Shown piece by piece: positions 9,878-50,241 of a stretch of 64,000 nucleotides of DNA. The position numbers and the translations under genes were made by a program. Below the pieces are notes generated by a model that did not search any database, was not told the origin of the DNA, and was given only the letters and a program-made list of their open reading frames with translations. This DNA comes from a virus. Lineage: Duplodnaviria > Heunggongvirae > Uroviricota > Caudoviricetes. The stretch lies in IMG/VR virus record IMGVR_UViG_3300014208_000038. One strand, 5' to 3'. Each line of letters opens with the position of its first letter. Position 1 is the stretch's first letter.

Positions 9878-10441
9878 ATGATTTTCACGAAAAATATTGC
9901 TATTATTGGCTCAGGTGGATTAGGAGCAAACCTTACAATGCTTTTGTTGGATCAAGGATACAATGTATTTTTGATAGATGGAGATACAGCAGATGAGAAG
10001 TTTTTTAAGAGATTTTCCACATTTACCAACTCTTTTGTTCTTAACTCAGGAAGAGCAAAGGTAGAAGTAGTAAAATCTGTAGCTCGTGGAAGAGGTTATG
10101 AAGATAAAATTAGAACTAGATCAGTAATGGTTGGACCGGAATTTGATTACAACTTATTTAAGCCTTATGAGCTGGTAATCATTGCGGTGGATACAATTAC
10201 TGGAAGGCAAACTATTGAGCTTAATCTTAAAAAGAATGGATTGACTAATTTTATCCACGTAGGGCTCAATCTGAATAGCATTAGTATTTTTAAGACGGCT
10301 GATGGATTACTAGGGGCAGATCCGCTACCGGATGCTCAAACTTCATATGATAGAGTCCCGGATGCAAGAACATATCTTACAGCTTGTTTAGAAGTATTAG
10401 ATATAATTGATCCTGTAACCATTCAGGTATATAAGGAGTAA
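9878..10441 (+). CDS. ThiF/MoeB-family E1-like adenylyltransferase (short, 187 aa)
   Basis: Rossmann IAIIGSGGLGANLTMLL...DGDTADEKFFKRF, parallel to E1 G-x-G-x-x-G ... D-x-D-x-x-E-x-x-N/R; SD agaggaggaATG. Confidence 0.65.
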   Translation: MIFTKNIAIIGSGGLGANLTMLLLDQGYNVFLIDGDTADEKFFKRFSTFTNSFVLNSGRAKVEVVKSVARGRGYEDKIRTRSVMVGPEFDYNLFKPYELVIIAVDTITGRQTIELNLKKNGLTNFIHVGLNLNSISIFKTADGLLGADPLPDAQTSYDRVPDARTYLTACLEVLDIIDPVTIQVYKE

Positions 10442-11542: not shown

Positions 11543-12241
11543 GTGAGTTTAAAAATGTTAGATGAAGTAAAGCATAGTCAATGTCCCATATGCACCGATT
11601 TAGATACTTCAAAATGTGAGGTTAAAATGGGTGCCGTGGTTTGGGGTTATCTTCAAGCCCTAATGTATAAAATGGGAAGTCAAGAATTTGCTGCGTATCT
11701 TTTGGGGTCCATAAGTGAAGATGGACAAAAATTTATTGTTGATGAGTATTATATTCCAACACAGGGAGTAAATTCAGTAAATGTAGAGATAGGCGAAGAA
11801 ATTTTTACAATACCAAAAGAAATTAGGGAAAGAATAATTGGTCATCTACATTCTCATCATATAATGGGTTTCTCTCCAAGCGGAACAGACAAGGAACATC
11901 TTAATTATCCTTTACATATCATAATTGCACATCAAGGATATAAAACCACAATTAGAAAGAGGGTTGGATGTGGTAAATGGCTTGCTATTTCTGATGTTCC
12001 GATTACGTTCTATTCGGATTATGTAGAGCTGGGTGAGACTGAAAAAATTGAGATCGTACAACCAAAATATGTTGATTTATATCAAAGTAGATTAGATGAG
12101 GGTGGAAATTATTTTGATCCTGTGGAAGAAAAAGATAATTTTGAAGAGTACCAAAAATATTTAGAAAATGAAAATAATTCTTGGTTTCCCCCATCATCGG
12201 AAGTGGTAAGCCGAGAAATTCAAGATGGAATGGAGATTTAA
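11543..12241 (+). CDS. JAB/MPN (JAMM) metalloprotease, deubiquitinase-like
   Basis: JAMM motif HLHSHHIMGFSPSGTD (H-x-H-x7-S-x2-D); upstream Glu present. Confidence 0.75.
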   Translation: MSLKMLDEVKHSQCPICTDLDTSKCEVKMGAVVWGYLQALMYKMGSQEFAAYLLGSISEDGQKFIVDEYYIPTQGVNSVNVEIGEEIFTIPKEIRERIIGHLHSHHIMGFSPSGTDKEHLNYPLHIIIAHQGYKTTIRKRVGCGKWLAISDVPITFYSDYVELGETEKIEIVQPKYVDLYQSRLDEGGNYFDPVEEKDNFEEYQKYLENENNSWFPPSSEVVSREIQDGMEI

Positions 12242-20273: not shown

Positions 20274-20408
20274 ATATTTTTAACTTGTAGGATTGCGAAG
20301 GACGGAGCGGGAAGCCCCCATCGTTCACGGTGGGGATGAAAGCGGAGTCCTTTGCTCCTGTTTCGGGCTACCAATAACTATTTAACGTAATAATGCGATG
20401 CACATTTT

Positions 20409-20831
20409 TTGGTAAATCCAATGAAATACAAGCTCGATAGGTCTGCACATTCAGTGTACTCACTTCACTATCACTTGGTGGTAGTCATCAAGTACCGTAG
20501 GAAAGCACTCTATGATGAAGCGATTCGCGAGAGGCTAAAGCAGATCATTTGGAGTTTGATGGATGAACTTGGAATAGAAATACTAGCACAGGAACCCGCC
20601 GAAGATCATCTCCATATACTGTTCACAGCGACACCTACAACCAACTTATCCAACGTCGTGAATGTAATCAAGGGCGTCACTGCCAGAAGACTCCGACAAG
20701 AGTTTCCGCAAACCAAGGAGTTCCTTTGGGGGGACTCATTTTGGTCAAATTCCTACTTCATTTCCAGTACAGGGCAGGTATCTCTCGATGTTCTGATGCA
20801 GTATGTAGAGTCTCAGATGGAGAAAGTATGA
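20409..20831 (+). CDS. tnpA: IS200-type Y1 (HuH) transposase TnpA
   Basis: HuH motif HYHLVVV and downstream catalytic Tyr region; about 140 aa. Confidence 0.9.
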   Translation: MVNPMKYKLDRSAHSVYSLHYHLVVVIKYRRKALYDEAIRERLKQIIWSLMDELGIEILAQEPAEDHLHILFTATPTTNLSNVVNVIKGVTARRLRQEFPQTKEFLWGDSFWSNSYFISSTGQVSLDVLMQYVESQMEKV

Positions 20832-22015
20832 TTATAAGCTACAAGTATCCTATCTTCCCGAATAAGATCGCCCAATGGAAGTTAGCGGAGAATTTGGATG
20901 CTTGTAGATGGCTCTATAATCGGCTTCTCCAAGACCTGAATGAAGCAAAAGAAAAAGGTATCAAGCTCAAGACCTATGATTCTCAGAACATGATTCCTTC
21001 TCTGAAGCTCGTAAATCCAAAGCTGGATCTTGTCTACTCTAAAGTTCTTCAGATGGTGAATTACACTCTTTGGTCTAACATCAAAGGACTCTCGGCATCA
21101 AAGAAGAACGGTCGGAAGATCGGTCATATCCGCTTCAAAGGGTATGGTTGGTATAATACCCTGAATTACAACCAATCCGGGTTCAAGATCGATCGAGATC
21201 ATGGCCTATTGCATCTCTCCAAGATCGGAGAAATGCGGATCAAGATCTATCGAAAGATCGAAGGTTGCATCAAAGCCGTCATAATCAAGAGAGAAGGCGA
21301 GAGATGGTTCGCCATAGTCCAGGCCAATCAGGAACCACAGCCGTTACCAAGAACCGAGGAAGCGGTAGGTCTGGATGTCGGTTTGACTTCCTTCGTGGTT
21401 GACTCCGAAGGCAATAATATAGAAAATCCAAGATGTGCCGAGCAATCTGCTGATAAACTGGCAAAGCTACAAAGAAAGCTAGCCAGAGCCAAGATGGGAT
21501 CAAATAATCGCAAAGCAATCAAGGATAAGATCGCCAAGCTGCATAAAAGAATCAATTGCCAACGAGATGATTTCCTGCATAAGTTATCTCGGACCTATAT
21601 TAATAACTTTGATATCATTTGTGTTGAAGATCTTGATGTCAAAGGCCTGAAAGAGAAAGGCCATAACACTGGCATGCATCGCAGCATTCATGATGCATCC
21701 TGGTCTAAGTTCATATTCATGCTTTCGTACAAGGCTCAAAGTGCTGGTCGAAAGTTGATAAAAGTAGATCCCAGGAACACCACTCAAAGGTGTTCTGCTT
21801 GTGGAAGCATCGTAAAGAAAGATCTGTCGGTACGAGTACATGAGTGCCCTTATTGCGGATTCTCGTGTGATCGAGACTATAATGCTTCCAGGAATATACT
21901 CATCACAGGGATGGAACAGCCCGTAGCGCCCAAAGAACCAAAACCACTACATCACATATCAGTGATGCAAGTTTTGGCAATGACGTGGGAAGCCGTGCCC
22001 TTCAGGACGCGGTAG
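20828..22015 (+). CDS. tnpB: TnpB (OrfB) RNA-guided-nuclease-family protein
   Basis: RuvC-like motifs (GLDVGL, ICVEDLDVKGL), C-terminal zinc finger CSACG...CPYCG...RDYNAS.NI; ATG 20828 overlaps tnpA stop; the track start 20726 is an over-extension. Confidence 0.9.
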   Translation: MIISYKYPIFPNKIAQWKLAENLDACRWLYNRLLQDLNEAKEKGIKLKTYDSQNMIPSLKLVNPKLDLVYSKVLQMVNYTLWSNIKGLSASKKNGRKIGHIRFKGYGWYNTLNYNQSGFKIDRDHGLLHLSKIGEMRIKIYRKIEGCIKAVIIKREGERWFAIVQANQEPQPLPRTEEAVGLDVGLTSFVVDSEGNNIENPRCAEQSADKLAKLQRKLARAKMGSNNRKAIKDKIAKLHKRINCQRDDFLHKLSRTYINNFDIICVEDLDVKGLKEKGHNTGMHRSIHDASWSKFIFMLSYKAQSAGRKLIKVDPRNTTQRCSACGSIVKKDLSVRVHECPYCGFSCDRDYNASRNILITGMEQPVAPKEPKPLHHISVMQVLAMTWEAVPFRTR

Positions 22016-22045
22016 TTCACTTAAAGCATATAAGGATTAAAAAAA

Positions 22046-22822: not shown

Positions 22823-23293
22823 ATGAAAAAGTTTCTTATTAAAGATTCAAAACTTTTGTCTCAAATTAAAAATATTATTAATATAAAATGGAAAGCAAAT
22901 AAGAAATATGTTCTTGCGGATTTAGTAATCTCTGCTCCAAATATTTATACTCCAGATTTAAGAACAGAATATGCATTTACGCCAGATGGAGATTTAATTG
23001 GAGATCCTAAAGCAGCTCAAATCTTGATTACTCAAAAAGGAATTAAACCTGAATTAAGAAGGCCCATAGATCAGATTTGTAGTATTGGATGGAGTTCTAA
23101 GACTCAAATGTACTATGGTTGGACATCTGGTAAAATAAGAGGTTTTAAAGTCAATGGAAAACCATTGGAATCTGGAGACATATTAACTGATATTTTAGAG
23201 GCAGGTTACGTCCCTCAATCAAAAGAAGATTGCAAACAGATGGCTATTTTGTTTGTGGAATTAGCTTCAAAAGAAGGTAAAATGCATGGTTAA
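22823..23293 (+). CDS. hypothetical protein
   Basis: SD aggagggaaataaaATG. Confidence 0.4.
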   Translation: MKKFLIKDSKLLSQIKNIINIKWKANKKYVLADLVISAPNIYTPDLRTEYAFTPDGDLIGDPKAAQILITQKGIKPELRRPIDQICSIGWSSKTQMYYGWTSGKIRGFKVNGKPLESGDILTDILEAGYVPQSKEDCKQMAILFVELASKEGKMHG

Positions 23294-28675: not shown

Positions 28676-29113
28676 TTAAATAAAAAATTCTGCCATTATT
28701 TCTTTATTATCAAATAAATTTTCTATTTTATCTTTTATTACTAATCTTATTGAGTCATCTTCATAAATGTAAATTTCTGAAAAATATTCTTCAGGAAATA
28801 ATAATAGAAAATTAACAAAGGATCGGGGGAACCACACATCTTTTATATCATTTTTAACTATACAACAAGAACCCCAAGAATCTTCAGGTTCGGATGCAAT
28901 TAAATTATTATTATTATCATATATATTTAAAGAAGATGTAATAATTTTTGCAGTATATGTTTTTTCTATTCTACCTGTTGATCTAAATATGATTCCATTT
29001 TTATATGTGTCTTGTTCTTGATCTATTTTGCTATTAATACTGGTTAATTCTATTTTTGTAGCACTATTTTCGGTAAGAATACTAAATATGGTTACTAGTG
29101 CTTTAAGAGGCAT
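28676..29113 (-). CDS. hypothetical protein
   Basis: 145-aa minus-strand ORF in the only minus-strand block. Confidence 0.4.
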   Translation of the reverse strand: MPLKALVTIFSILTENSATKIELTSINSKIDQEQDTYKNGIIFRSTGRIEKTYTAKIITSSLNIYDNNNNLIASEPEDSWGSCCIVKNDIKDVWFPRSFVNFLLLFPEEYFSEIYIYEDDSIRLVIKDKIENLFDNKEIMAEFFI

Positions 29114-29242
29114 ATATAATTTACAAAAAATTTCTTTAGAAATAAAATCAACTCCTTAAATAATATAATATTTATTTAAGTATTTAAAGGTTTCTTTTAT
29201 AATTAGAAATCCTTTTATACTTATAAAAGATTATTTATATAG

Positions 29243-29725
29243 GTGATTAAAATAACTCAAATGGAATCTGCATTAGTTTCTGCGTTTAATTTTTTTTACT
29301 TTACATCAAAAATACAAGCTTTTGCTTTTAGATTAGACCAGGGTTTATATTATGGAGTTCAATTATCAGATTTTTTATCAGATTCATTAAATAGAGATTA
29401 TTATTTTGCTGTTGAAGCAAAATCTATAAATAGTTTTAAATATAAAACATTTAATTTTAAATCTAGGTTTTCTGAAGGGCAATTAGAAAGAGAAAAGAAA
29501 TATTGTGATTTAGTTGGAAGGCAACATTTTACGGCTATAGAATTAAGGGCTGGCCGTGGTGAAAAAAGATCTTGTCATTTTATAAAAAGTGAAAAGTTAT
29601 TAACTAAAATAAATAATGGAATTAAATCTATAAAAGTAGAAGATATAAAAAATTATCCGGGTCTACCTAGAGAAAAAGGAAAATACATAATCAACAAAAA
29701 AATATGGGCGAAGATTGTAGCATAA
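29243..29725 (+). CDS. hypothetical protein with possible PD-(D/E)xK nuclease motif
   Basis: ...RDYYFAVEAKS... fits D...E-x-K spacing of restriction-endonuclease-fold (Hjc-like) proteins; weak. Confidence 0.3.
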   Translation: MIKITQMESALVSAFNFFYFTSKIQAFAFRLDQGLYYGVQLSDFLSDSLNRDYYFAVEAKSINSFKYKTFNFKSRFSEGQLEREKKYCDLVGRQHFTAIELRAGRGEKRSCHFIKSEKLLTKINNGIKSIKVEDIKNYPGLPREKGKYIINKKIWAKIVA

Positions 29726-29758
29726 GATTTATAAACCCGTAAAGCTGTAGTAATTATT

Positions 29759-30079
29759 ATGATATCCTTTAGAAAACTTGGTAAAAACCCAATTGTCTAT
29801 GATTTTCCTATAGAGTTTAATTGTAAAAACCTTTATATGGGTTCTAAAGAGGGAGCAACTTTTAGTACAAGTATTCCTATATCCTCAAAAGAATGGAGAG
29901 TTAAATTTGGTAGAATACCTGAAGTAAGAGTTAAGGTAGAAAAAGCTAAAACTATATTCAATATTATTGATGATTATAGTCAAAAATATATTGTAGAAAT
30001 TAGTAATGAACACCAGAGTATTATTGAAGGAGCCATCCTTTCCGCAATAGACGATGATCTATTGAGGGGGAATTTTTAA
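29759..30079 (+). CDS. hypothetical protein
   Basis: 106-aa ORF. Confidence 0.35.
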   Translation: MISFRKLGKNPIVYDFPIEFNCKNLYMGSKEGATFSTSIPISSKEWRVKFGRIPEVRVKVEKAKTIFNIIDDYSQKYIVEISNEHQSIIEGAILSAIDDDLLRGNF

Positions 30080-30130
30080 ATGATTGCACTAGAATTAGTC
30101 CTTTAATGGGATGAGGAGGAATAAATAATA

Positions 30131-30913
30131 TTATTCTCCTATAAAAGAATCCATATTTTTTATTATTTCTTTTGGATTGTTATATAAGTTCTTCCATCTT
30201 ATTCTTATAAGTTCCCATCCCAAACTAATTAATAATTTATCTTTCTTTTTATCACTTTCTATTTGTTTTTTAGTAAGATGTTGATCTCCATCAATTTCTA
30301 TTGCTTTCATTTTTTCTTTCCAAGCAAAATCTATAGAATAACGACCAACAGAATATTCTCTAATATAGTTTTTATCTTTAAAATTATTTTTTATTGCCTT
30401 TATTACAAATTGTTCTGGATAAGAAGGTTCATTATTCCAACGACAAGATCCTATATTATGAGCCCTGCCTTCTGCATGAGCTTTTTTCATAGATTTTGAA
30501 ATTTTTATTTTTTGTTTACCACTTATAATAGGATGTGGATTTTTTAAATAATATTCTTTTTTTATTTTACTAAGGCTTAGGCATAAATTTTTTGTTTTTT
30601 CTTCTCCATAAAGTTCGTTATATGTTTTATCTTTATTGAAATTTGGTTTTCCTAATTTTATATATTTTATTTTTTTAGAATGTTCTTGACCAGAATAAAT
30701 ATGTACGCGCCATATATGAGTAGAAATTCCTTTTAAAGTAAATTCTTTTGAACAAATAGGGCAAAGATAAAATCCATTTTCTTGTATGCAATTTTTATTT
30801 ATTTCAAAATTTTTTATTTTTTTAATATTAGAATGAGATAAAATATGTTTTTTAATATTAGAATTACTTATTAATCTTTTACACTCTGGGCATTCTGTTT
30901 TATTTCTAATCAT
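30131..30913 (-). CDS. 2x C2H2 zinc finger + DUF559 (Vsr-like endonuclease fold) protein; putative site-specific/homing-type endonuclease
   Basis: CPECK...H...H and CPICS...H...H fingers; C-terminal YSVGRYSIDFAW...IEIDGDQH...LGWELIRIRW is the DUF559 signature. Confidence 0.6.
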   Translation of the reverse strand: MIRNKTECPECKRLISNSNIKKHILSHSNIKKIKNFEINKNCIQENGFYLCPICSKEFTLKGISTHIWRVHIYSGQEHSKKIKYIKLGKPNFNKDKTYNELYGEEKTKNLCLSLSKIKKEYYLKNPHPIISGKQKIKISKSMKKAHAEGRAHNIGSCRWNNEPSYPEQFVIKAIKNNFKDKNYIREYSVGRYSIDFAWKEKMKAIEIDGDQHLTKKQIESDKKKDKLLISLGWELIRIRWKNLYNNPKEIIKNMDSFIGE

Positions 30914-30932
30914 AAAAACTCTCTGAATTTAA

Positions 30933-31004
30933 TCTGTACTCCCGAAGTTGAATCGGGTTAATCTCGGTCTACAGCCGAGTGCATAACCGTTCTGCCAAGT
31001 ACAG
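30933..31004 (-). tRNA. tRNA-Tyr (anticodon GUA), 72 nt, C1:G72 pair
   Basis: manual fold: acceptor CTGTACT/AGTACAG, anticodon arm CTCGG-CTGTAGA-CCGAG, T-arm CCCGA-TTCAACT-TCGGG; C1:G72 is the archaeal/eukaryal Tyr identity pair; no encoded CCA. Confidence 0.7.
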
Positions 31005-31151
31005 TTTTTTGCCACCACAGATATTTCGATATACTAACAGCGTACTCGTCTTTTCTAGACTTATGGGTGTTGACTCCTTTTCCTGAAGCCGCAAGGGTAC
31101 TGATTTATATCGAGGTACTACTACCCTTTATTCCCTTCTATGGTGACAAAA

Positions 31152-31257
31152 TGGACAGTGAGGAACTCGAATCCCCGGCCTCCTGCTATTTTGTTTGACC
31201 TTTCCCCATTATGTCAAAAATGCAAAGCAGGCTATCTTCCAACTGATATAACTGCCC
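31152..31257 (-). tRNA. tRNA-Ala (anticodon UGC) with a 33-nt intron at position 37/38
   Basis: acceptor GGGCAGT/ACTGTCC with G3:U70; D-arm TATC-AGTTGGAA-GATA; anticodon stem CCTGC/GCAGG, loop TT-TGC-A | intron TTTTTGAC...GTCAAACAAAAT | A; T-arm GGGGA-TTCGAGT-TCCTC; followed by TTTT. Confidence 0.75.
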
Positions 31258-31295
31258 AAGAGCAGTGATTATGTGCCCAATATCCCTATCACCAA

Positions 31296-31369
31296 TGGGC
31301 TTGTTCGGATTTGAACCGAAGGCCAAGTGGTTCCAGACCACCTATGCTACCAGGCTACACTACAAACCC
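31296..31369 (-). tRNA. tRNA-Pro-like (anticodon UGG), unusual C33
   Basis: acceptor GGGTTTG/CAAGCCC, D-loop TAGCCTGGTAGC (archaeal/eukaryal style), anticodon arm GGTGG-TCTGGAA-CCACT, T-arm TTCGG-TTCAAAT-CCGAA; TTTATAG TATA-like box about 28 nt upstream. Confidence 0.6.
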
Positions 31370-31458
31370 ATATCTTAGTATATGGTTCTTCTATAAATAG
31401 TTTTCTCTTATGATTTCGGAGCGTTAACTATTTATCTTAGGCAACATAAGAATATATT
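31370..31458. promoter_or_regulatory. divergent promoter region: TATA-like boxes for the minus-strand tRNA cluster and the + strand ligase gene
   Basis: minus-strand AAAACTATTTATAGAAG about 28 nt upstream of tRNA-Pro 5' end; + strand ACTATTTATCTTAGG about 30 nt before ATG 31459 (no SD, leaderless-like). Confidence 0.45.
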
Positions 31459-32109
31459 ATGAAATACCCTCATACTCCATATTTTAGTTTTAGTCCAGCA
31501 GTAAGCGAGAAAGATAGAAACAGAAAGGATGTATATATTAATTTACAACATCTTCTTAATAAGCCTTTAGTATTTACTATTAAGATGGATGGTAGTAATT
31601 TAGGAATGACTAGAGAAAAAATATTTGCTAGGAATGGAATTGATGCCAGGCACAAATCGTTTGACTTAGCAAAGAGCCTTCATAACAGAATTAAGAAAGA
31701 AATTCCAGAAAATGAAATTTGGTATGGAGAGTGGTTGTATGCTAAACATTCTATTCATTATTCTGATCTAGAATCGTACTACCAATTATTTGCTATATAT
31801 TTTGTTGAAGAAGATTATTGGACTGGAGTTAATTGGATAAAGAATAGGGCAGAACTTCATGGACTGAAAACCGTGCCTTTGCTTACTAGAGGACCACAAT
31901 ACGGGGATGTTAAAACTTTGAAGCAGGTAATTCAACAGGAGGGAGACAGAGTAATTAAAATGGGTCAAGAAGGTATTGTGGTTAGAACCAAAGATGGGTT
32001 TTACGCAAAAGACTTAAATAAGTGTATAGCGAAATATGTTCGTGCAAATCATATTCAAACCGATGAGCATTGGAAAACACAGAAAATTGTGAAAAATTTA
32101 TTGAGGTGA
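31459..32109 (+). CDS. compact ATP-dependent polynucleotide ligase (KxDG nucleotidyltransferase), RNA/DNA ligase-like
   Basis: motif I TIKMDGSNLG (Lys-x-Asp-Gly), motif IV-like EWLYAKHS, motif V-like GIVVRTKDG...AKYVR; 216 aa. Confidence 0.6.
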   Translation: MKYPHTPYFSFSPAVSEKDRNRKDVYINLQHLLNKPLVFTIKMDGSNLGMTREKIFARNGIDARHKSFDLAKSLHNRIKKEIPENEIWYGEWLYAKHSIHYSDLESYYQLFAIYFVEEDYWTGVNWIKNRAELHGLKTVPLLTRGPQYGDVKTLKQVIQQEGDRVIKMGQEGIVVRTKDGFYAKDLNKCIAKYVRANHIQTDEHWKTQKIVKNLLR

Positions 32110-32264
32110 ACTAAAATGGTAGATTAAAAGAGGATAAATGAATTAGTTATAATGAAGATTATTTAACTTGGAATTCTTATTATAAAGAGTTCAGAGTAGC
32201 TATGGTTAACAAAGCAAGAGAGGCAAGAGAGATTTTAAAAAAAGAAAGAGGAGAGTGTTAGATT

Positions 32265-32750
32265 ATGGAACATTCGATTATAGATTATAGGGATCATACT
32301 AAAGAATATTTTAGAACTTTTATTGAACCTAAGGAAAATGGGGAAGGGTATATTTTCAATCCAAATAGCGGAGAAAATTATAAAGTCTTACAAAATTCCA
32401 TTCATCCTTACATAAAAAATTTAACAGAATATTTTGTTCAAAAAAGAACGGATATAGAATTAGAAAAATCTTATAGAAATGCAATGTTGAATCAAAAATT
32501 TTATGATTTTGATTTAGATTCTCATATTAGAGGATGTATGTCTATAGCAATGGATCAAGTGGATCATGATACAATGAGATATTATAGAAAAATTAGACAG
32601 ATTTATTCTACATTATATGCTAGTGAAAAAGTGCTTTTGTATGCAATCCTTTTAAACAAGAAGAATAGCTCAGAAAATATATGGCGATGGGCTGCCATAG
32701 GTGAATTGAAACATATTAAAAGAGTACTGGATGGGGAGGTTAAAAGATAA
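32265..32750 (+). CDS. hypothetical protein
   Basis: 161-aa ORF. Confidence 0.4.
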   Translation: MEHSIIDYRDHTKEYFRTFIEPKENGEGYIFNPNSGENYKVLQNSIHPYIKNLTEYFVQKRTDIELEKSYRNAMLNQKFYDFDLDSHIRGCMSIAMDQVDHDTMRYYRKIRQIYSTLYASEKVLLYAILLNKKNSSENIWRWAAIGELKHIKRVLDGEVKR

Positions 32751-33226
32751 TGAAAGAGAAATTTTTAGAATTATTGAGGTCAGAAAATGCAATTGCTCAT
32801 AGGAATTATCACGCTACTAAATCAATGGCAGAAGGAAAATCACATGCAGTAAATTATTGGTACACTAGAAATGTCTTTAGCAAAAAATTAATAGAACTTA
32901 TTAATAGTTATCTTCCAGATGAGGCAATTAATGATTTGTTTGCAGAATTAGTTTTTAATTTAATAAAAAAAGAATCTTATTCTATAAAAGGGAATTCTAC
33001 TGAACAGCAATCTAATTCTATTTATAGTTGTATAAAAGATGAGGATTATGAAGAATTTTATCCAGAGATATATCAAGGAGTTGCCGTTAGACATATTTGT
33101 ACGACAGAAGATTTATTTAATGCTATGGAAGGTAATTTGACTCTTTCTGCTAAAGAGTTGAATTATTATGCACAATTCTTTGATAGAGGATATCAATGGT
33201 GGCAAATAAAAAGATTACTCCACTAA
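32750..33226 (+). CDS. hypothetical protein
   Basis: 158-aa ORF, ATGA overlap. Confidence 0.4.
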   Translation: MKEKFLELLRSENAIAHRNYHATKSMAEGKSHAVNYWYTRNVFSKKLIELINSYLPDEAINDLFAELVFNLIKKESYSIKGNSTEQQSNSIYSCIKDEDYEEFYPEIYQGVAVRHICTTEDLFNAMEGNLTLSAKELNYYAQFFDRGYQWWQIKRLLH

Positions 33227-33262
33227 AAAGAGTTTTTTGGGAGTAATCTACTAAGAGAGGAG

Positions 33263-33450
33263 AGAACTTTATCTAGTAAGGGAAAGAGGAGGAAACCTTA
33301 CTAGATATTTATTACTATTGTATCGAACTTATATTTAAATCTTTCTATATTATAAAAATAAAGTTTAAAAATAGTGGTATCCTCTATAAATTTGTTGATG
33401 GGAGAGAGTTTAGAAACCTTTATCTAGGAGAACCTTCTAATATAAGGTTC
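33263..33450. promoter_or_regulatory. hairpin-rich intergenic region upstream of the primase-helicase gene (candidate origin/operator)
   Basis: perfect 11-bp inverted repeat ATCTAGTAAGG-(14 nt)-CCTTACTAGAT at about 33271-33306; 7-bp hairpin GAACCTT-(7)-AAGGTTC at about 33430-33450; direct repeat CTTTATCTAG x2. Confidence 0.5.
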
Positions 33451-33473
33451 CAGACATTTTTAGGTGATAAAAA

Positions 33474-35786
33474 TTGACTCAAAAAGAACTATCGATTGAA
33501 GAATTAAAATTTTTAAAAGAGAACAAAATAGACTTTGAAGGAGATTTAATTACAGAATACGTAGAAAGAGGTTATAATCTTTGCCCTGTAAGTAAAGGAA
33601 CTAAAGATCAATACCTATACAAATGGTCGTTGCTTCAAGAAAAAAAAGCAACTCTTCAACAAATTAATGGGTGGAGAGGAAAATATAACTCAGATTGGGT
33701 TCTTGTATGTGGAAAACAGAATGAGAACATTATTGTAATTGATTTTGATGATCCAGAAATTTATGAAAGGTATTTTTCTGAGTATAAGAAAATGTTATCT
33801 AGATCTCCTTCTGGAGGTTATCATCTCTATATTAAGGCCAAAAAACTTCCGGGTGCTATAAATGGATTTGGAGGATTTTTAATTGATATCAAAGGGGAAG
33901 GTTCCGTTTGCCACATTCCTCCATCAGAAGGTAATGATTGGATTTTCTTGGAGTCAGAACCTGATGAAATTGATATAAATATAGAAGATTGGATTCTATC
34001 TTTGCTCCCTTCTGGCAAAATAGAATCAAAATATAAGACAGGGGAAATTCCAGCAGATATTTTTAGTTATGCTAGAGAGAAACTTAAGGTAACTTTTGAG
34101 GATAAAAAAGGTAGATATCTTAAATGTACCTGTCCTTTTCATAGAGGCGGAAAAGAAACAGATGGTTCTTTAACTATATTTGCTCATGACCAAAAGTTTT
34201 GGTGTTTTTCCTGTCATAAAAAGGGAGGAATGTTTGAGCTAATAAAAGAATTTGAGTCAGGAATTACTGAAAATGAAATTTTAGAGCGATATGGTCTAAT
34301 CAAAGAACCTGGAACTATTGTTCAAAAAGTAATTAAGTTAGCTAGAGATAGTTGTAAATTTGTTAAAGATCAGAATAATACTACATATGCAGTTATTATA
34401 AAAAATCAATGTGATATGGATCAGAACATCTATGTTATTGATAGCCTTGGCTTCAGATGGTGGTTAGCTCATAATTATGAAGCTGTATATGAAGGGGCCT
34501 TACCTTCGGATAATCAAGCAAGTCAGGCAATGAAACATTTAGCTGGATTTGCTATTACAAAAGGAGAGAGAATTAGAAGTTTTAATAGAATTGGTGTCGG
34601 AAATAATTCTAAAGAAATATTTTATGATATCGGAGATGGTTCCTATCTTAAAATAGAACCTGATGATATAAATATTGTTAAATCAACAGATCTATTCTTT
34701 AGAAGAGAGAGTCATCAAGGGATACAGGTTTTGCCTCATAAATTTAACCCAATGGATACAATTAAATTATTTGATATTATAAATGTAAAAGAACAGAAGA
34801 GTAAACTGCTTTTAATTGCCTGGCTAGTGACTTCTCTGCTTCCCGATGAAGAACATCCTGTTTTATTACTTCATGGTTCGCAGGGTGCCGGTAAGTCTGT
34901 TGCTGCTAGGATCACAAAAAGGTTAATTGACCCAACCAGTTCAGAAAAGAATGAATTATCTAGGTTAAATGCTAAAGATTATGGGCAAATTACATTTACA
35001 TTAGCTCATAATTTTGTTACTATATTCGATAATATATCTTTTACTGATAAATCAATAGATGATATTCTTTGTTTGGGTGTAACTGGTGGATCAGAAATTA
35101 AAAGAGCCTTATTTACGAACTCAGAAACTGTGTCTACAGATATTAGCAGTACTATTATTCTAACAACTATCAACCCGGATTTGATCACAGCAGGAGATCT
35201 TGGAGATAGATCTATACAGATCGAATTAGATAGACCTGTAGGAAAGTTTTTAAACAGGAAATTTATTGATGCTCACTTTAATTCTGTCAAATCTGAGATT
35301 TTTGGTGGGCTGATTGCCTTGGTACAGCTTTATCTAGAGAAAAAAGAAGAGTTAGAAAAAGAACCATCTAGCTTTAGGATGACTACATATGCCGCTGTTG
35401 GAAAACTTGTAGCCGAAACACTTGGATTAGGAAGTTTTGAAGAGGCTTATCTAGCAGATCAGCTATATATTACTAGATCTGTGCTCGAAAATGAGCCTTT
35501 GTCTCAATTTGTTTATTATATGGCAGATCAACATCCTGATACTCCGTATTCTTTTACGGATCTTTTAGCTGAAATGCAAGATTGGGGCACTAAAACTGGA
35601 ATTAATACTACAATTGGCAAGGAATTTCCAACTGGTGCAAAAGGTATGTCTCAAAAACTAAAAAGATTAGAAGAAGATCTAAGGAGAAGTTGGAAGATTA
35701 AAACTACCAGATGTGATGTAAATAAGAGTAGAGGAATTATGTTTAGTAAACCGGGATCATCCGATATAAGAAGAGAGGAGGAATAA
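33474..35786 (+). CDS. primase-polymerase (prim-pol) / CHC2 zinc-finger / P-loop NTPase (D5-like helicase) fusion protein
   Basis: N-terminal prim-pol (IVIDFDD...SPSGGYHLYI), CHC2 finger CTCPFHRGGKETDGS...CFSCHKKG, Walker A HGSQGAGKSV; apparent TTG start. Confidence 0.75.
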   Translation: MTQKELSIEELKFLKENKIDFEGDLITEYVERGYNLCPVSKGTKDQYLYKWSLLQEKKATLQQINGWRGKYNSDWVLVCGKQNENIIVIDFDDPEIYERYFSEYKKMLSRSPSGGYHLYIKAKKLPGAINGFGGFLIDIKGEGSVCHIPPSEGNDWIFLESEPDEIDINIEDWILSLLPSGKIESKYKTGEIPADIFSYAREKLKVTFEDKKGRYLKCTCPFHRGGKETDGSLTIFAHDQKFWCFSCHKKGGMFELIKEFESGITENEILERYGLIKEPGTIVQKVIKLARDSCKFVKDQNNTTYAVIIKNQCDMDQNIYVIDSLGFRWWLAHNYEAVYEGALPSDNQASQAMKHLAGFAITKGERIRSFNRIGVGNNSKEIFYDIGDGSYLKIEPDDINIVKSTDLFFRRESHQGIQVLPHKFNPMDTIKLFDIINVKEQKSKLLLIAWLVTSLLPDEEHPVLLLHGSQGAGKSVAARITKRLIDPTSSEKNELSRLNAKDYGQITFTLAHNFVTIFDNISFTDKSIDDILCLGVTGGSEIKRALFTNSETVSTDISSTIILTTINPDLITAGDLGDRSIQIELDRPVGKFLNRKFIDAHFNSVKSEIFGGLIALVQLYLEKKEELEKEPSSFRMTTYAAVGKLVAETLGLGSFEEAYLADQLYITRSVLENEPLSQFVYYMADQHPDTPYSFTDLLAEMQDWGTKTGINTTIGKEFPTGAKGMSQKLKRLEEDLRRSWKIKTTRCDVNKSRGIMFSKPGSSDIRREEE

Positions 35787-38591: not shown

Positions 38592-38957
38592 ATGGAATTT
38601 AAATATAAAATGGCAATAGTTATAAGAAAAGATTTAGAAATGTCTCCTGGAAAACTTGCAGGACAATGTGCTCATGCTGCCTGTGGATGTTTGAGGGCAC
38701 CCATAGGACCAGAAAAATCAAAATATATAGAGGAATGGTTTGAAGAAGGTCAAGTGAAAGTAATTTTGCAAGTAGAAAAACAAGCAGATTTACATATGTT
38801 AGCTTCTAAATGTTTATTAGAAGAAGTACCTTATTATTGTGTTAGAGACTTTGGACTTACAGAATTGGAACCTAATACGCTTACTTGTGTAGGAATTGGT
38901 CCAGATCTCAAAAAGAATGTAGATAAAATTACGGGAAATCTTAAACTATATAGGTGA
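38592..38957 (+). CDS. pth2: peptidyl-tRNA hydrolase, PTH2 (archaeal/eukaryotic type)
   Basis: MAIVIRKDLEMSPGKLAGQCAHAA matches the PTH2 signature (V.R.DL.M..GK.AAQ.AHA); about 120 aa; SD ggaggaatttaagatATG. Confidence 0.8.
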   Translation: MEFKYKMAIVIRKDLEMSPGKLAGQCAHAACGCLRAPIGPEKSKYIEEWFEEGQVKVILQVEKQADLHMLASKCLLEEVPYYCVRDFGLTELEPNTLTCVGIGPDLKKNVDKITGNLKLYR

Positions 38958-39667: not shown

Positions 39668-39862
39668 ATGGATGAGAAACAAAAAGTTTTTGTCTACGGT
39701 CTTAGGACTGTAATAAGACAAAAAATCAAGAAAACTGGGGATACAGTTAATAAAGGACAGTTAAGAACAATAGATACAGTTATTGATGGACTTAATATTA
39801 TAGAAGATATGAGTTTAGAAGAGGTTCAAAAATTAATGAAGAAAATGGAAGGTGAGATTTGA
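39668..39862 (+). CDS. hypothetical protein
   Basis: SD aaggaggataagtaaaATG. Confidence 0.4.
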   Translation: MDEKQKVFVYGLRTVIRQKIKKTGDTVNKGQLRTIDTVIDGLNIIEDMSLEEVQKLMKKMEGEI

Positions 39863-40896
39863 TGGAGCAAAATCAAAAATCTAGGCATCTAGCCTCTGTT
39901 CAACAAATTGTAGATATTCAACCTATTGAAAATGCTGATTCTATTGAACTAGCTCGTGTATTAGGTTGGAATGTAGTAATTAAAAAAGGACAATTTAAAG
40001 TGGGAGATCCTATAGTATATTTTGAAATTGATAGTGTCCTCCCCAAAATTCCTGATTTTGAGTTTCTTAAAGATAAGCATTACAAAGTAAAAACTTGTCG
40101 TCTACGTGGAGCTATTTCCCAGGGGCTATGTACTCCATTAAGTATTCTGCCCGAAGGACATTATGATCTTGGAGATGATGTAACAGAGATTCTTGGAGTA
40201 ACTAAATACGAGAAGCCTATTCCTGTTCAGTTGAGAGGGAGAGTTCGAGGTAATTTTCCAAGAGGGATACCTAAAACAGAAGAGCTGCGGGTTCAATCTA
40301 TTCCACATATAGTAAGTAAATATCAAGGATATACGTTTACTCTAACTGAAAAATTAAATGGTACTTCTGCTACGTATTTTTTGGATGAAGAGACTGGATT
40401 ACATTGTTGCAGCAGAAATTTAGATTTACATCCAGAGACGGTACACAAATTCAATGGAACTGCGTATTGGTTTTTGGCTGAGAAACTAAATATTGAAGAA
40501 ATTATTAAAACATTAGGTAAAAATATCGTGATCCAAGGAGAAATCATTGGCAATGGAATTAATGGAAATCAATATAAATTGAATGATCTTCAACTAAAGA
40601 TATTTAATTTATATGATAAAGAAAACCATGTATATCTGGATCAACAAGTAATGAATGATATCATAGAAGGTCTTGGATTTTCTAAAGATTTTTTTGTCCC
40701 GTATCTTGGACAGATTACGTTGGATCAGAATGTAGATCAAATTGTGGAAATGGCTTATGGAAGATCTGTAATTAATCCAGATGTAATTCGGGAAGGCTTA
40801 GTTTTCCGAGCCAGTCCAGAGATTATAGATCCATTTGTGGGCAGAGTAAGCTGGAAATGTATCTCTCCGAGCTTTAACCTAGAGTTCAAAGAATAA
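39859..40896 (+). CDS. RNA ligase-like nucleotidyltransferase (Rnl2-like family) with N-terminal extension
   Basis: motif I-like TEKLNGTSATYF (K-x-N-G in place of K-x-D/H-G), downstream EGxV and K-rich motif V-like regions; 345 aa. Confidence 0.5.
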   Translation: MMEQNQKSRHLASVQQIVDIQPIENADSIELARVLGWNVVIKKGQFKVGDPIVYFEIDSVLPKIPDFEFLKDKHYKVKTCRLRGAISQGLCTPLSILPEGHYDLGDDVTEILGVTKYEKPIPVQLRGRVRGNFPRGIPKTEELRVQSIPHIVSKYQGYTFTLTEKLNGTSATYFLDEETGLHCCSRNLDLHPETVHKFNGTAYWFLAEKLNIEEIIKTLGKNIVIQGEIIGNGINGNQYKLNDLQLKIFNLYDKENHVYLDQQVMNDIIEGLGFSKDFFVPYLGQITLDQNVDQIVEMAYGRSVINPDVIREGLVFRASPEIIDPFVGRVSWKCISPSFNLEFKE

Positions 40897-42865: not shown

Positions 42866-43360
42866 ATGATTTTTAAGTGTGGTGGTATTTCTGATTCTAC
42901 TATAGATGGGATTGGTATGTCTTTAGATATATTCTTTCAAGGATGTTCTAAAGGATGTAAGGGATGCCAAAATCCAGAATTGCAAGATAAGTTTAAAGGA
43001 GATTTTATAGATATTGACTTTATCATGGAACAACTAGAAAAATATTCTGGATTTTATCAATCCCTAGTTTTTGTAGGAGGGGAACCACTTGAACAAATAG
43101 ATCCATTATTGTATTTAATTTGTCTTGCCAAAGAATTTAAATTATATACAGTTTTATATACAGGTAATATATATAAAAATATTCATCCTGATATAAGAAG
43201 AACTTGTGATATTATTGTTGATGGGGATTATAGAGAAGATTTAAAAACTGGTGGGTTTCCGGCTTCGAGTAATCAAAATATTTATATTTATGGTAAAAAA
43301 ATTGAATTAAATAATAACTATAACAAAAGTTTAATGGAGATATTTAATAATGAGAATTGA
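42866..43360 (+). CDS. nrdG: anaerobic ribonucleotide reductase activating protein (radical SAM, NrdG-like)
   Basis: FFQGCSKGCKGCQNP Cys cluster of NrdG-type activases; small size; immediately upstream of and overlapping nrdD. Confidence 0.75.
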   Translation: MIFKCGGISDSTIDGIGMSLDIFFQGCSKGCKGCQNPELQDKFKGDFIDIDFIMEQLEKYSGFYQSLVFVGGEPLEQIDPLLYLICLAKEFKLYTVLYTGNIYKNIHPDIRRTCDIIVDGDYREDLKTGGFPASSNQNIYIYGKKIELNNNYNKSLMEIFNNEN

Positions 43361-45230
43361 AACAACTTTTTCAAACGAGTTTGATGAATGGTATAATAAG
43401 ATTATGAAAGCAAATTTGGGACCAGAATTTTTAGATATAGAAGGAATTTCTAGGCGTTGTATTGATGTAGGATTAATGTCTCATTCCTATTTTACTAAAA
43501 ATTTTACGGACGAAACAATAGATAGTAATGCTAATACGGGAGAATCAATCTCACCAAATAATTATGGTAGTGAAATTGTAAAAGGAGTTCAAAAACTTGA
43601 GGGTTTTTATTTACTTCATAGATATGCTTCAAGAAGATATGGATTGGAAAAGGCAAATAGATTATTAAATGCAATTGTGCGCGGCGACCTCTATTTTCAC
43701 GATTCTAGCGGTCCTGGGATTCAAGAGGTATATTGTACTTCAGTTAGTACTTATCCTATAATGACAGAGGGCAGAAAATATGGCCCCCTCCATAGTCTTC
43801 CTCCCAAGAGAGCTGATTCTTTTATTGCTCAATGTATTGAGTTCACAATGGATCTATCGCAGCAATTCGCAGGTGCAGTAGCTCTTGGAGATTTATTTAT
43901 TAACTACGCTTATTACAGTAGAAAGGAAAATTTATCTGATAAAATTATATTAAATGATTTCCAAAAGTTCGTACATGTAGTCAATAATACATTCAGGGTG
44001 TCCGAACAGAGCCCATTTTCCAACCTTAGTATCTTTGATATACCTAATTTAGAAAAAGTTTTTGGAGACTATAAATATCCAGATGGTTCTTCTCCAGATT
44101 TTGAATATATTATGAATATTCAAAAGTTATTCTGTGAATGGTTTTCTCACGGAGATCCAAAAAGCGGCTTCCCATATCGTTTTCCCATCATCACAATGAA
44201 TCTTCTTTGTGACAAAGATAAGAATATTTTAGATACTGATTTTCTAGACTTTATCTCAAAAGTTAATTTGGAAAAAGCTTGCTTTAATATTTATATAAAT
44301 TCTGGGGAAAAGATTGCATCCTGTTGTAGAATGATAAATGACAAAAAAAGAATGCAATTTAAAGTGGATACTTTTGGAAATGGTGGAATGAATGTAGGTA
44401 GTGTAAGAGTTGTTACAATAAACCCTGTAAGAATTGCTATTAAATCGAATGGCGACCAAACAATTTTCTTCCAAAAATTACAACAACAATTAGAAAATGC
44501 AAGAGATCTTCTTATAGTACATAGAGAGGACATTATAAAAAGGCGTATTGATGCCGGATTTTTAAAATTCTTTAAGCCTTTAAATTGGTTGAATTTGAAA
44601 AGATATTTTAGCACGTTTGGAATAGTTGGAATTTATGAGATGAATAAAACAATGGGTTATGATATAACTTCAGAAGATGGAATCAAATTTACCGCAGAAG
44701 TCTTAAAATATATTGAAGATTTTGCCATAAAGTCAAGTAATGAACTTGGATTTTCCTTCAATGTTGAGGAAATACCAGCAGAATCTGCGGCTAGTAAACT
44801 TGCTCAAAAAGATAGGCTTCTGTTTGGTAAAAACAAAATTCCTTTTGAATCATACTCAAATCAGTATGTTCCTCTTATTGAACAGGCGTCAATTCCCGAA
44901 CGTATAATTACTACTGGTAAATTTATGGAGATACTTTCTGGTGGGGGTATTTTACACCTAAATATTGCAGAACAAATTAAAGATCCAGAAGTTATGAAGC
45001 ACTTAATTGAATATAGTGTAAAACACGGAGTTAGTCACCTAGCAGTAAACTACGGATTTGGGCAGTGTAAAAATAGGCATACAACTATTTGTGGAAATAA
45101 TCCAAAGTGTTCTATATGTGGGTCTAAAATTGATACTTATGTGACAAGAATCGTAGGCTACCAGGCCCGCGTGTCAAATTTTTCTAAAGTAAGAAGAGAA
45201 TATGAGTTTCCTCGGAGGGTATTCAATTAA
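43350..45230 (+). CDS. nrdD: class III anaerobic ribonucleoside-triphosphate reductase (NrdD)
   Basis: N-terminal ATP-cone-like region, C-terminal Zn ribbon CKNRHTTICG...CSICGS and glycyl-radical motif TRIVGYQARV. Confidence 0.85.
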   Translation: MRIETTFSNEFDEWYNKIMKANLGPEFLDIEGISRRCIDVGLMSHSYFTKNFTDETIDSNANTGESISPNNYGSEIVKGVQKLEGFYLLHRYASRRYGLEKANRLLNAIVRGDLYFHDSSGPGIQEVYCTSVSTYPIMTEGRKYGPLHSLPPKRADSFIAQCIEFTMDLSQQFAGAVALGDLFINYAYYSRKENLSDKIILNDFQKFVHVVNNTFRVSEQSPFSNLSIFDIPNLEKVFGDYKYPDGSSPDFEYIMNIQKLFCEWFSHGDPKSGFPYRFPIITMNLLCDKDKNILDTDFLDFISKVNLEKACFNIYINSGEKIASCCRMINDKKRMQFKVDTFGNGGMNVGSVRVVTINPVRIAIKSNGDQTIFFQKLQQQLENARDLLIVHREDIIKRRIDAGFLKFFKPLNWLNLKRYFSTFGIVGIYEMNKTMGYDITSEDGIKFTAEVLKYIEDFAIKSSNELGFSFNVEEIPAESAASKLAQKDRLLFGKNKIPFESYSNQYVPLIEQASIPERIITTGKFMEILSGGGILHLNIAEQIKDPEVMKHLIEYSVKHGVSHLAVNYGFGQCKNRHTTICGNNPKCSICGSKIDTYVTRIVGYQARVSNFSKVRREYEFPRRVFN

Positions 45231-48579: not shown

Positions 48580-50241
48580 ATGTTTAAACTTAAATTTGGA
48601 AAACCAAAGGGAACAAAAGAGGCTATCTTAGCTCTACTTGGAGGAGACACTTCTCTTATAAAAGATAGTCTTTATACCCTTGGTTTTAAATTTAATCCAC
48701 TTAATAATTATTGGGTCACTTCTAAATTTAATTCTCATACAATTGACTATCTAAAAGAAATTGATCCAGATATAGAAATATCTGATTTTGTAAGAGAAAA
48801 GTATCAACATTGTTTACTAAAACCAGAACCTATTTTTAAGAATACACTTAGGCAAGAGATGATGCTTCCTCATCAATGGGAAGCCCTTAATTTTTTACAA
48901 AAAGCTGGATCAGGAATATTAGCCTATCAAATAGGTACAGGAAAAACTTTAGGATCTTTATCTTATGCGGAATATATGGGAATAAATACACTTATAGTTT
49001 GCCCTGCAAAGCTCAGAAAACAATGGGAAGAAGAAATTAAAAAATTTACTAATTCAGTTGGGTTCAAAATAGCAGGAACTCAATCTGAAAGAAAAGAATT
49101 ATGGCAATATTCAAAAGATTATCATTATGCAATTATTTCTTATGAATCTTTCCTTAATGAAAAAGATATAGAATACATTAAAAATTATTCAAATAATGGA
49201 ATGATTATTTTTGATGAAATAACAAAATTAAAAAACTCCAAATCAAAAACATTTAAGGCGGCATTTGAAGTCAGACAACAAGCAAGATTTGCTGTTGGTC
49301 TAACAGGAACTCCTTATGAAAATAATTTAGGAGATATTTATGCATTACTTAGATTAATAACTCCTTATTATATTCCTAAATATGAAATATTTGCTCAAAA
49401 TTTTCTTAAGCAAAGTGAACATGAAGTTTTTAATCCAAACACTGGTCATAAAATTAGATATAATAGGATTGATGGGGAAAAGAATATAGAACAATTTAAG
49501 AAAATACTAAAACCAGTTATGATTCGTAAAACTAGGGAAGAAGTATTAGACTTACCCTCTGAATCTACTATTACTTATGATATTGAACTTACTAAAGAGC
49601 AAAGAGAAATAGAGGATATTCTTAAATCTCTAGCAAAGATGTATTCAGAATACATTTTAAAATGGTTTATCTTTGCTATGGAGAATCTGATTAGTCCTTC
49701 CTTAGTAAATGTAAGTTCTATTGGTGAAGTGGCTCCATTCGAAGCTTATGAGGTTCAGAGTCGATCTGAAGGCTCTCCCATGACACCAAGATTAGAAACT
49801 ATATCTGAAATATTAGAAGAAATTGATGGACAAAAAGTTATAATATTTTCTAAATACGTCCGAGCATTAGATTTAATTCAGAAGGAGATCCTTTATAAAC
49901 ATGGGTACGATTATAAAGAAGTAAGTGGAAGAGTTAAACATCCAGAGGAAGAATTACTTTCATTTAAAACTAATGCTAACACAAATGTTTTGTGTATGAC
50001 CCAGGCAGGTCAATATGGACTCAATATAACAGAGGCTCCTCTACTGATAATAGTAGATAAACCCCTTAATCCGGCGAAATTAGATCAACTTAAGGGTCGA
50101 ATTTATAGAAAGGGTCAAAAAGTACCAGTAACCTATTTTGAGCTAATAAGCAACAGCCCAACAGAACAACGAATCGAAAGTATTATAAGTAAGAAGCAAG
50201 TTATATCTCAGAAGGTGTTAGCCAGAGAGGTTTTATTATGA
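48580..50241 (+). CDS. SNF2/Rad54-family (superfamily 2) helicase
   Basis: motif I LAYQIGTGKTL, motif II IFDEITKLK, motif III GLTGTP, C-terminal helicase motifs QAGQYGLNIT...LKGRIYRKGQ. Confidence 0.75.
   Translation: MFKLKFGKPKGTKEAILALLGGDTSLIKDSLYTLGFKFNPLNNYWVTSKFNSHTIDYLKEIDPDIEISDFVREKYQHCLLKPEPIFKNTLRQEMMLPHQWEALNFLQKAGSGILAYQIGTGKTLGSLSYAEYMGINTLIVCPAKLRKQWEEEIKKFTNSVGFKIAGTQSERKELWQYSKDYHYAIISYESFLNEKDIEYIKNYSNNGMIIFDEITKLKNSKSKTFKAAFEVRQQARFAVGLTGTPYENNLGDIYALLRLITPYYIPKYEIFAQNFLKQSEHEVFNPNTGHKIRYNRIDGEKNIEQFKKILKPVMIRKTREEVLDLPSESTITYDIELTKEQREIEDILKSLAKMYSEYILKWFIFAMENLISPSLVNVSSIGEVAPFEAYEVQSRSEGSPMTPRLETISEILEEIDGQKVIIFSKYVRALDLIQKEILYKHGYDYKEVSGRVKHPEEELLSFKTNANTNVLCMTQAGQYGLNITEAPLLIIVDKPLNPAKLDQLKGRIYRKGQKVPVTYFELISNSPTEQRIESIISKKQVISQKVLAREVLL

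Follow-up and report, generated by a model that had tools for sequence, protein, structure and literature searches.

When a 64,000-nucleotide (nt) stretch of viral DNA (IMG/VR record IMGVR_UViG_3300014208_000038; the whole stretch is called the window here) was analyzed for tRNA genes, a cluster of three was observed on the minus strand: tRNA-Pro(UGG), tRNA-Ala(UGC) with a 33-nt intron, and tRNA-Tyr(GUA). We consider it likely that these are three working, virus-encoded tRNA genes of archaeal type, carried by a large tailed virus that most likely infects Methanothrix, and that the intron is spliced out by the host.

ARAGORN in its default mode reported tRNA-Tyr(GTA) at 30933-31004(-) and tRNA-Pro(TGG) at 31295-31370(-). 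Both calls were supported by the Rfam tRNA covariance model RF00005 (gathering score 29 bits), with 56.5 bits for tRNA-Pro in a scan of the whole window and 52.3 bits for tRNA-Tyr in a local scan. The intron mode (ARAGORN -i) added tRNA-Ala(TGC) at 31151-31258(-), whose 33-nt intron interrupts the anticodon loop at the canonical site. As RF00005 is unable to score an intron-bearing tRNA-Ala, the intron-mode call and pair counts were used for this gene instead. No further intron call was made by this mode across the 64-kb window, and a single one was made in approximately 500 kb of host loci, where it was a genuine tRNA-Met. The cluster locus was matched base for base among three independent assemblies (JGI, ENA and Logan), and thus it is not an assembly artefact.

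The tRNA-Tyr carries C1:G72, which is the archaeal/eukaryal pair, together with A73 and the short variable loop of a class I tRNA (AUUAA, 5 nt). The tRNA-Ala carries G3:U70, A73 and a UGC anticodon, and G3:U70 is unchanged in this gene and in both of the relatives described below (3/3 sequences). CCA follows none of the three genes, the 3' bases being TTA, TTT and TTG. The first-pass annotation of this DNA had described the minus-strand trio with these two identity pairs, the intron between positions 37 and 38, an unusual C33 in tRNA-Pro, the missing CCA and a TATA-like box about 28 nt upstream of the first tRNA, and all of these readings held when they were compared with the gene calls, the sequence and the relatives.

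The RNA ligase gene that flanks the cluster was used as a syntenic anchor, and homologues with 82 % identity were found beside related loci. At the same site, lineage L083-L088 contains no tRNAs, while two related metagenomic contigs (L089 and L090) contain a minus-strand cluster of Pro(TGG)-Ala(TGC)-Asn(GTT)-Phe(GAA), in which all four genes scored 51-68 bits with Rfam and Asn and Phe are found instead of tRNA-Tyr. L090 was found by the tRNA-Pro pattern and was the single additional contig obtained when metagenomes were scanned with it. No match was found among the INPHARED phages in a DNA similarity search with positions 29000-34000, and none among the IMG/VR viral contigs for the RNA ligase, tRNA-Ala exon 1, the tRNA-Pro pattern, the 3' half of tRNA-Ala or tRNA-Tyr.

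The tRNA-Ala genes of L089 and L090 are intronless and scored 51 bits with Rfam. When they were aligned with the window gene, a gap of 33 nt was observed exactly at the predicted intron, after ...TTTGCA, and the intron boundaries were thus fixed without dependence on any gene finder. The mature anticodon loop UUUGCAA is common to the spliced and the intronless versions, and the spliced tRNA-Ala forms 21/21 cloverleaf pairs, as do the intronless relatives. Five pairs changed in a compensatory way between the window gene and its relatives (two in the anticodon stem and three in the T stem), a number that was reached by 0/500 shuffles, and out-of-register structures gave one at most. As a separate observation, the T loop of the intronless genes (L089 4341-4413 and L090 1496-1568, both on the minus strand) is UGCAAAU with G55, and their T arm is unrelated to that of the window tRNA-Ala; position 55 of tRNAs is almost always U (pseudouridine 55).

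Two introns were used as templates for the register of the bulge-helix-bulge motif, one of 34 nt in a tRNA-Met of Methanocrinis (Methanotrichaceae) and the other in a tRNA-Ala of the haloarchaeal virus HGTV-1. In both, loop positions 32-35 pair with intron positions n-5 to n-2, the bulges are 36-37/i1 and i(n-1)-i(n)/38 (the slash marks the splice site) and the inner helix starts from i2. The strict motif was defined as a 4-bp central helix, two 3-nt bulges containing the splice sites and outer helices of at least 2 bp. Euryarchaeal endonucleases are described as requiring the strict motif at the canonical position (PMC4090602), and it is for this reason that the strict register was considered the relevant one. 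The window intron fits it with Watson-Crick pairs only: the central helix consists of U32-A31, U33-A30, U34-A29 and G35-C28, the bulges are C36-A37/U1 and A32-U33/A38, and the inner helix consists of U2-A27, U3-A26 and U4-A25. Among 200,000 shuffled introns, 0.0125 % matched when only Watson-Crick pairs and a 3-bp inner helix were accepted, and 1.6 % when G.U pairs and a 2-bp inner helix were allowed. The ends of the intron had earlier been proposed to pair as TTTGAC and GTCAAA in a bulge-helix-bulge-like manner. The motif itself stands, and the proposed helix has to be replaced, as TTTGAC/GTCAAA is a stronger alternative inner helix and the central helix is formed by U32-G35 with CAAA.

Other identities of the intron were also analyzed. 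A group I intron was ruled out, because 33 nt compares with a self-splicing core of more than 200 nt and no intron or ribozyme match was found with Rfam in 30700-31600 (E-value up to 10). A box C/D guide RNA was rejected for the intron as well as for the spacer, neither of which contains a C box (RUGAUGA) or D box (CUGA). When the intron and both spacers were compared by BLAST with the window and all fetched loci, no second copy was found, and a repeated mobile element is thus without support.

The window, L089 and L090 have an identical block, TATA box included, that extends from about -36 to +16 relative to tRNA-Pro, and upstream of about -36 the sequences of the window and of L089/L090 diverge. 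A purine-rich stretch resembling the B recognition element (BRE) lies directly upstream of TTTATA, and the two presumably form an archaeal promoter of the cluster. The conserved promoter, taken together with the compensatory stem changes, indicates selection on the RNA products.

From these sequence features we infer transcription, cleavage by the splicing endonuclease EndA, ligation by RtcB and a benefit in codon supply. Transcription would start from the BRE/TATA promoter at or just before tRNA-Pro, and tRNA-Pro and tRNA-Ala would come from one transcript, with tRNA-Tyr either on the same transcript or produced from its own weak TATA within the spacer. In the tRNA-Ala precursor, loop positions 32-35 would pair with CAAA, which lies close to the intron's 3' end, and this pairing would place the splice sites in 3-nt bulges. 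Host EndA would cut both bulges and leave a 2',3'-cyclic phosphate and a 5'-OH, and the exons would be joined by RtcB, either that of the host or the virus's own. Host RNase P and RNase Z would trim the ends, host enzymes would add CCA, and the mature tRNAs would decode Tyr codons as well as those Ala and Pro codons that end in A/U. These codons are far commoner in the virus with 30 % G+C than in its host with about 50 % G+C.

The codon usage of the virus was compared with the three anticodons. GCA and GCT together account for 80 % of Ala codons, CCA and CCT for 83 % of Pro codons and TAT for 90 % of Tyr codons, so that A/U-ending Ala and Pro codons and TAT dominate and match the anticodons of the cluster. 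The counts fit a supply role for the Ala, Pro and Tyr tRNAs.

In the case of tRNA-Pro, the proline identity features G35, G36, A73 and G1:C72 are present, and the anticodon loop is U32-C33-U34-G35-G36-A37-A38, with C33 and A37 at the positions of U33 and G37. The same loop (UCUGGAA) is found in the tRNA-Pro genes of L089 (4418-4491) and L090 (1573-1646). Between the window gene and these relatives, one pair of the T stem changed in a compensatory way, another pair went from G.U to A-U, and the T stem of the relative has an A.C break, a covariation that is little informative with two distinct sequences only, 90 % identical to each other. 1-Methylguanosine at position 37 (m1G37) is universal in tRNAs that read CCN, and G37 is its site in tRNA-Pro; with A37 this modification is impossible. 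It was previously reported that C33 alone hardly impairs yeast tRNA-Leu(GAG) (PMC13492127), and a second report links the lack of G37, the m1G37 site, to +1 frameshifting in bacteria (PMC7577736). The missing G37 is a more notable departure in this tRNA than C33. The tRNA-Pro is odder than the first-pass annotation had described, and the decoding variant suggested there is a conjecture.

The window has a G+C content of about 30 % and nearly all of its genes are on the plus strand, and the tRNA-endonuclease cassette is a local strand inversion that was also seen in the skew profile. The 79-kb JGI contig of this DNA also carries a terminase large subunit gene, about 6 kb to the right of the window, and another assembly gave a contig of 104 kb; what the first-pass annotation had called a mobile element is thus probably a tailed virus of at least 104 kb. 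The terminase opens a minus-strand block of large proteins without family match. This block probably represents the virion module; no capsid or portal gene was identified.

Within the window, an insertion sequence (IS) of the IS200/IS605 family shares 90-92 % DNA identity over about 1.75 kb with many chromosomal copies in Methanothrix, and this near-identity is good evidence for the presence of virus and Methanothrix in one and the same cell. We read the element as an apparently recent exchange and as a putative host marker, with Methanothrix as the most likely host. Together with the tRNA-Tyr type, the 37/38 intron and the conserved BRE/TATA, the Methanothrix-like element bears out the archaeal character that had been claimed for the cluster. 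A bacteriophage origin, prompted by the Pol III alpha-type DNA polymerase and the phage-like RtcB, was considered and rejected in view of the archaeal tRNA-Tyr, the bulge-helix-bulge motif, the TATA box, the peptidyl-tRNA hydrolase PTH2 and the Methanothrix element. Two further observations concern the same gene set: a Pol III alpha replicase of bacterial type is unexpected for an archaeal virus, and the anaerobic ribonucleotide reductase NrdD with its activase is consistent with a strictly anaerobic host.

The virus encodes its own RtcB, as had been stated earlier. RtcB joins 2',3'-cyclic phosphate and 5'-OH ends, and the viral protein is a candidate for sealing the tRNA-Ala exons as well as damaged tRNAs. 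When 60 open reading frames (ORFs) of the window, the larger ones among them, were scanned with Pfam, domains of the splicing endonuclease (tRNA_int_endo) and of the CCA-adding enzyme were not found. An intron-bearing tRNA-Met in a genome of the host family (Methanotrichaceae) implies an active splicing pathway on the host side. Reliance on the host endonuclease and RtcB, which the first-pass annotation had proposed, is thus a reasonable inference as far as the endonuclease is concerned, and with an RtcB gene in the virus either ligase could act. The window also encodes two RNA ligases, both of the ATP-dependent type, a Thg1-like protein and a primase-polymerase. A pair of ThiF-like and JAB-domain proteins possibly serves ubiquitin-like conjugation and deconjugation, and the Tad6 homologue suggests an anti-defence gene in an archaeal virus. 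Coordinates of all features are listed in Table 1.

Table 1. Features of the tRNA cluster, its surroundings and the wider viral gene set (window positions unless a contig is given)
Feature	Position	Strand	Details
tRNA-Pro(UGG)	31296-31369	-	G1:C72, A73; Rfam RF00005 56.5 bits; ARAGORN
tRNA-Ala(UGC)	31152-31257	-	ARAGORN intron mode; 33-nt intron 31188-31220
tRNA-Ala exon 1 (positions 1-37)	31221-31257	-	Holds G3 of G3:U70; ARAGORN -i
tRNA-Ala exon 2 (positions 38-73)	31152-31187	-	A73, CCA not encoded, followed by TTTT
tRNA-Ala intron	31188-31220	-	33 nt between 37 and 38, UUUUUGACAUAAUGGGGAAAGGUCAAACAAAAU
tRNA-Tyr(GUA)	30933-31004	-	C1:G72, A73, loop CUGUAGA; ARAGORN; Rfam 52.3 bits
TATA box TTTATA	31392-31397	-	-28 to -23 from G1 of tRNA-Pro; sequence reading
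Spacer Pro-Ala	31258-31295	-	38 nt, compared with 4 nt in relatives; 7-bp hairpin UGGUGAU...AUCACUG
Spacer Ala-Tyr	31005-31151	-	147 nt, 15-bp closing helix, this lineage only
C2H2 zinc-finger and DUF559/MTES_1575 (Vsr-like) endonuclease	30131-30913	-	Pfam
RtcB	1476-2636	+	Pfam RtcB E = 1e-107; 386 aa
RNA ligase PF09414	31459-32109	+	Divergent from tRNA cluster; Pfam, PHROGs
Peptidyl-tRNA hydrolase PTH2	38592-38957	+	Pfam PF01981 E = 7.7e-37
Second RNA ligase (PHA02142 OB-fold and RNA_ligase)	39859-40896	+	Pfam, PHROG 968
Thg1-like (3'-5' nucleotidyl transferase family, tRNA 5'-end repair)	52988-53782	+	Pfam Thg1 E = 1.8e-28
IS200/IS605-family element with TnpB	20275-22044	+	44 % G+C
NrdD (anaerobic ribonucleotide reductase) and radical-SAM activase	42866-43360, 43350-45230	+	
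Tad6 homologue (Tad6 = Thoeris inhibitor)	22823-23293	+	Pfam E = 1.4e-20
ThiF-like (E1-like) protein; JAB-domain protein	9878-10441; 11543-12241	+	
Pol III alpha-type DNA polymerase	57444-62750	+	1768 aa; N-terminal UDG domain; LAGLIDADG intein
Terminase large subunit	L092 16125-17738	-	PHROG 38 E = 2.9e-26

Several points weigh against working tRNA genes with a host-spliced intron. The central helix of the motif consists of three A-U pairs and one G-C pair, and because it is A/U-rich the motif fold (-10.1 kcal/mol) lies 1.8 kcal/mol above the minimum free energy (MFE) fold (-11.9 kcal/mol). In the alternative register the 6-bp inner helix results in a 4-nt 5' bulge, which is not strictly canonical. 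With neither U33 nor G37, the tRNA-Pro may or may not be efficient in normal decoding. None of the three tRNAs serves TTA, ATT or AAA, the codons with the strongest enrichment in the virus, and the host preference for GCC and CCC was observed in a crude sample, namely the ORFs around the IS copies. The viral RtcB is of the short phage type (386 aa) and about 40 % identical to phage RtcB proteins, and it may serve RNA repair instead of splicing. The host link consists of one shared IS element in addition to the archaeal tRNA and promoter features.

Some of the same observations can be read differently, with the tRNAs mainly as a counter-defence kit that replaces host tRNAs cut or depleted by anticodon nucleases and works together with viral repair enzymes. 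The dense set of RtcB, two RNA ligases, Thg1-like protein and PTH2 in the window agrees with this, as do the Tad6-like gene, the divergent RNA ligase that stands beside the cluster site in every lineage and the enriched codons left uncovered by the tRNAs. The C33/A37 loop and the tRNA-Ala intron could also make poor nuclease substrates, and the loop has been kept in two lineages. However, the tRNA-Pro genes of those lineages are 90 % identical and recent shared ancestry may suffice to explain the loop, the codon use fits the three anticodons, and an anticodon nuclease is neither known nor shown for Methanothrix. We therefore regard counter-defence as a possible but rather doubtful main role; it is compatible with working, host-spliced tRNA genes and both may hold.

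A more far-reaching proposal, which we consider speculative and unlikely, is that the intron in tRNA-Ala(UGC) and the C33/A37 tRNA-Pro are adaptive parts of viral counter-defence and not neutral quirks. If this were true, the intron, having arisen separately in HGTV-1 and here, could shield the tRNA-Ala(UGC) gene or the loop of its precursor from a host attack on tRNA-Ala(UGC), such as nuclease, CRISPR targeting or integration, and RtcB-dependent splicing would be part of the infection programme. A tRNA-Pro without m1G37 could be a deliberately nuclease-resistant or frameshift-prone decoder, and the mosaic pattern of tRNA-Ala would record a recent intron transfer between tRNA genes.

The mosaic pattern was observed when tRNA-Ala was compared with its intronless relative in L089: 33/37 positions are identical in 1-37, 13/28 in 38-65 and 8/8 in 66-73. 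The intron is lineage-specific and probably came with a gene-conversion patch over tRNA-Ala positions of about 28-65. The window lineage also gained a hairpin insertion of 34 nt, which accounts for the longer Pro-Ala spacer in the alignment with L089 and L090, as well as the 147-nt spacer, tRNA-Tyr and the endonuclease gene. The RNA fold of the 147-nt spacer has a free energy of -43.1 kcal/mol (z = -4.5; 0/200 shuffles equally stable), and its closing helix contains two G.U pairs that are workable only on the tRNA-sense strand. Nothing credible was found for this spacer with Rfam (30700-31600, E-value up to 10), the sub-threshold chance matches in that interval being mir-5365, sn2841, PK-IAV and DUF2693, and the spacer is not present in L089 or L090. 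Possible identities are a small RNA, an inserted inverted repeat and a stem used in processing.

With three lineage-specific, hairpin-forming insertions within 250 nt, palindromes may simply accumulate in this lineage, and tRNA-Ala would then be a pseudogene, its anticodon loop interrupted by a hairpin-forming insertion that always stays in the transcript. The weak central helix, which is not in the MFE fold, would agree with this. We nevertheless concluded that a pseudogene is very improbable, because the insertion lies exactly at 37/38 in a strict Watson-Crick motif of the rarity in shuffled introns given above (0.0125-1.6 %), the cloverleaf of the exons is intact with five compensatory changes, G3:U70 and A73 are preserved, and HGTV-1 and the host-family tRNA share the design.

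The endonuclease gene has the same orientation as the tRNA genes and begins 20 nt after tRNA-Tyr. Its nearest homologues share 45-49 % identity and are widely scattered, none is close enough to reach other intron-bearing clusters, and the gene is not found at this site in the relatives. The enzyme is probably selfish and free-standing. The same flanking genes enclose a different content in each of three related lineages (Pro-Ala(intron)-Tyr-endonuclease, TnpB-Phe-Asn-Ala-Pro, and no tRNAs), and the site is thus a recombination hotspot. An endonuclease gene beside the tRNA cluster both here and in HGTV-1 suggests endonuclease-driven shuffling of clusters. A main use of the tRNA genes as DNA, either as integration or recombination sites or as cargo of the adjacent endonuclease, would agree with this hotspot and with the abutting endonuclease genes, yet we find it scarcely credible and the least probable reading of all, as an integrase was not found nearby, the conserved promoter and compensatory stem changes argue for selection on RNA, and endonuclease mobility explains the spread of clusters and not the kept tRNA folds.

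A viral intron-bearing tRNA together with an RNA ligation and repair toolkit was known from one haloarchaeal virus and is now extended to a probable virus of Methanothrix, which is among the most important methane producers and whose virus biology is little known. Close relatives share the promoter exactly and differ in whether tRNA-Ala is interrupted, so that gain or loss of the intron can be studied as a natural experiment. The recurrence of an intron in tRNA-Ala(UGC), now seen in two archaeal viruses that are unrelated, is possibly non-random and may have a reason. In addition, archaeal tRNA features and a shared IS element offer a practical means of host assignment for an otherwise unclassifiable contig with 30 % G+C. 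Our literature searches yielded neither a description of this virus nor a report of an intron-bearing tRNA in a virus of methanogens; this is the first methanogen-associated case found, and the direct precedent is HGTV-1.

The gene set of HGTV-1 includes over 30 tRNAs as well as RtcB, a CCA-adding enzyme and two RNA ligases (PMC8651126), and one of its tRNA genes carries an intron (PMC13532342). In its record (NC_021328) this gene is annotated as 'tRNA Ala (tgc) + Intron' beside an HNH endonuclease (49346-49759), and ARAGORN placed a 31-nt intron at 37/38. Like HGTV-1, the virus described here, which is probably also a tailed virus of archaea, encodes tRNAs, RtcB and RNA ligases. In each of the two viruses, Ala(UGC) is the one isoacceptor with an intron, the central helix is UUUG:CAAA and the bulges are of 3 nt. 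They differ in that HGTV-1 has its larger tRNA set, a family B DNA polymerase and a halophilic host with about 55-60 % G+C, whereas for the virus described here the window shows three tRNAs, a polymerase of the Pol III alpha type and about 30 % G+C, and the probable host is a methanogen. The two intron sequences share only CAAA, which is forced by the anticodon loop, and the tRNA-Pro of HGTV-1 has a canonical UU-UGG-GA loop with U33 and G37.

Canonical euryarchaeal introns are cut out by EndA, with RtcB joining the exons. The window intron has in common with them its position, its length class of about 30-35 nt and its strict helix-bulge-helix-bulge-helix register, but it differs from them in being viral and not chromosomal, A/U-rich, weak in its central helix and polymorphic among close lineages. 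The clusters of large phages, T4 and T5 among them, are similar in that their tRNAs match the codon bias, free-standing endonucleases are found at the cluster and RNA-repair ligases are encoded. In contrast, bacterial-type tRNA-Tyr has G1:C72 and a long variable arm, and any introns in phage tRNAs belong to the self-splicing group I and exceed 200 nt. Chloroviruses and giant eukaryotic viruses also contain tRNA clusters in which some genes have short protein-spliced introns, but these viruses have eukaryotic hosts and promoters, whereas the gene organization, the terminase, the IS200/IS605 element and the host link point to an archaeal tailed virus here.

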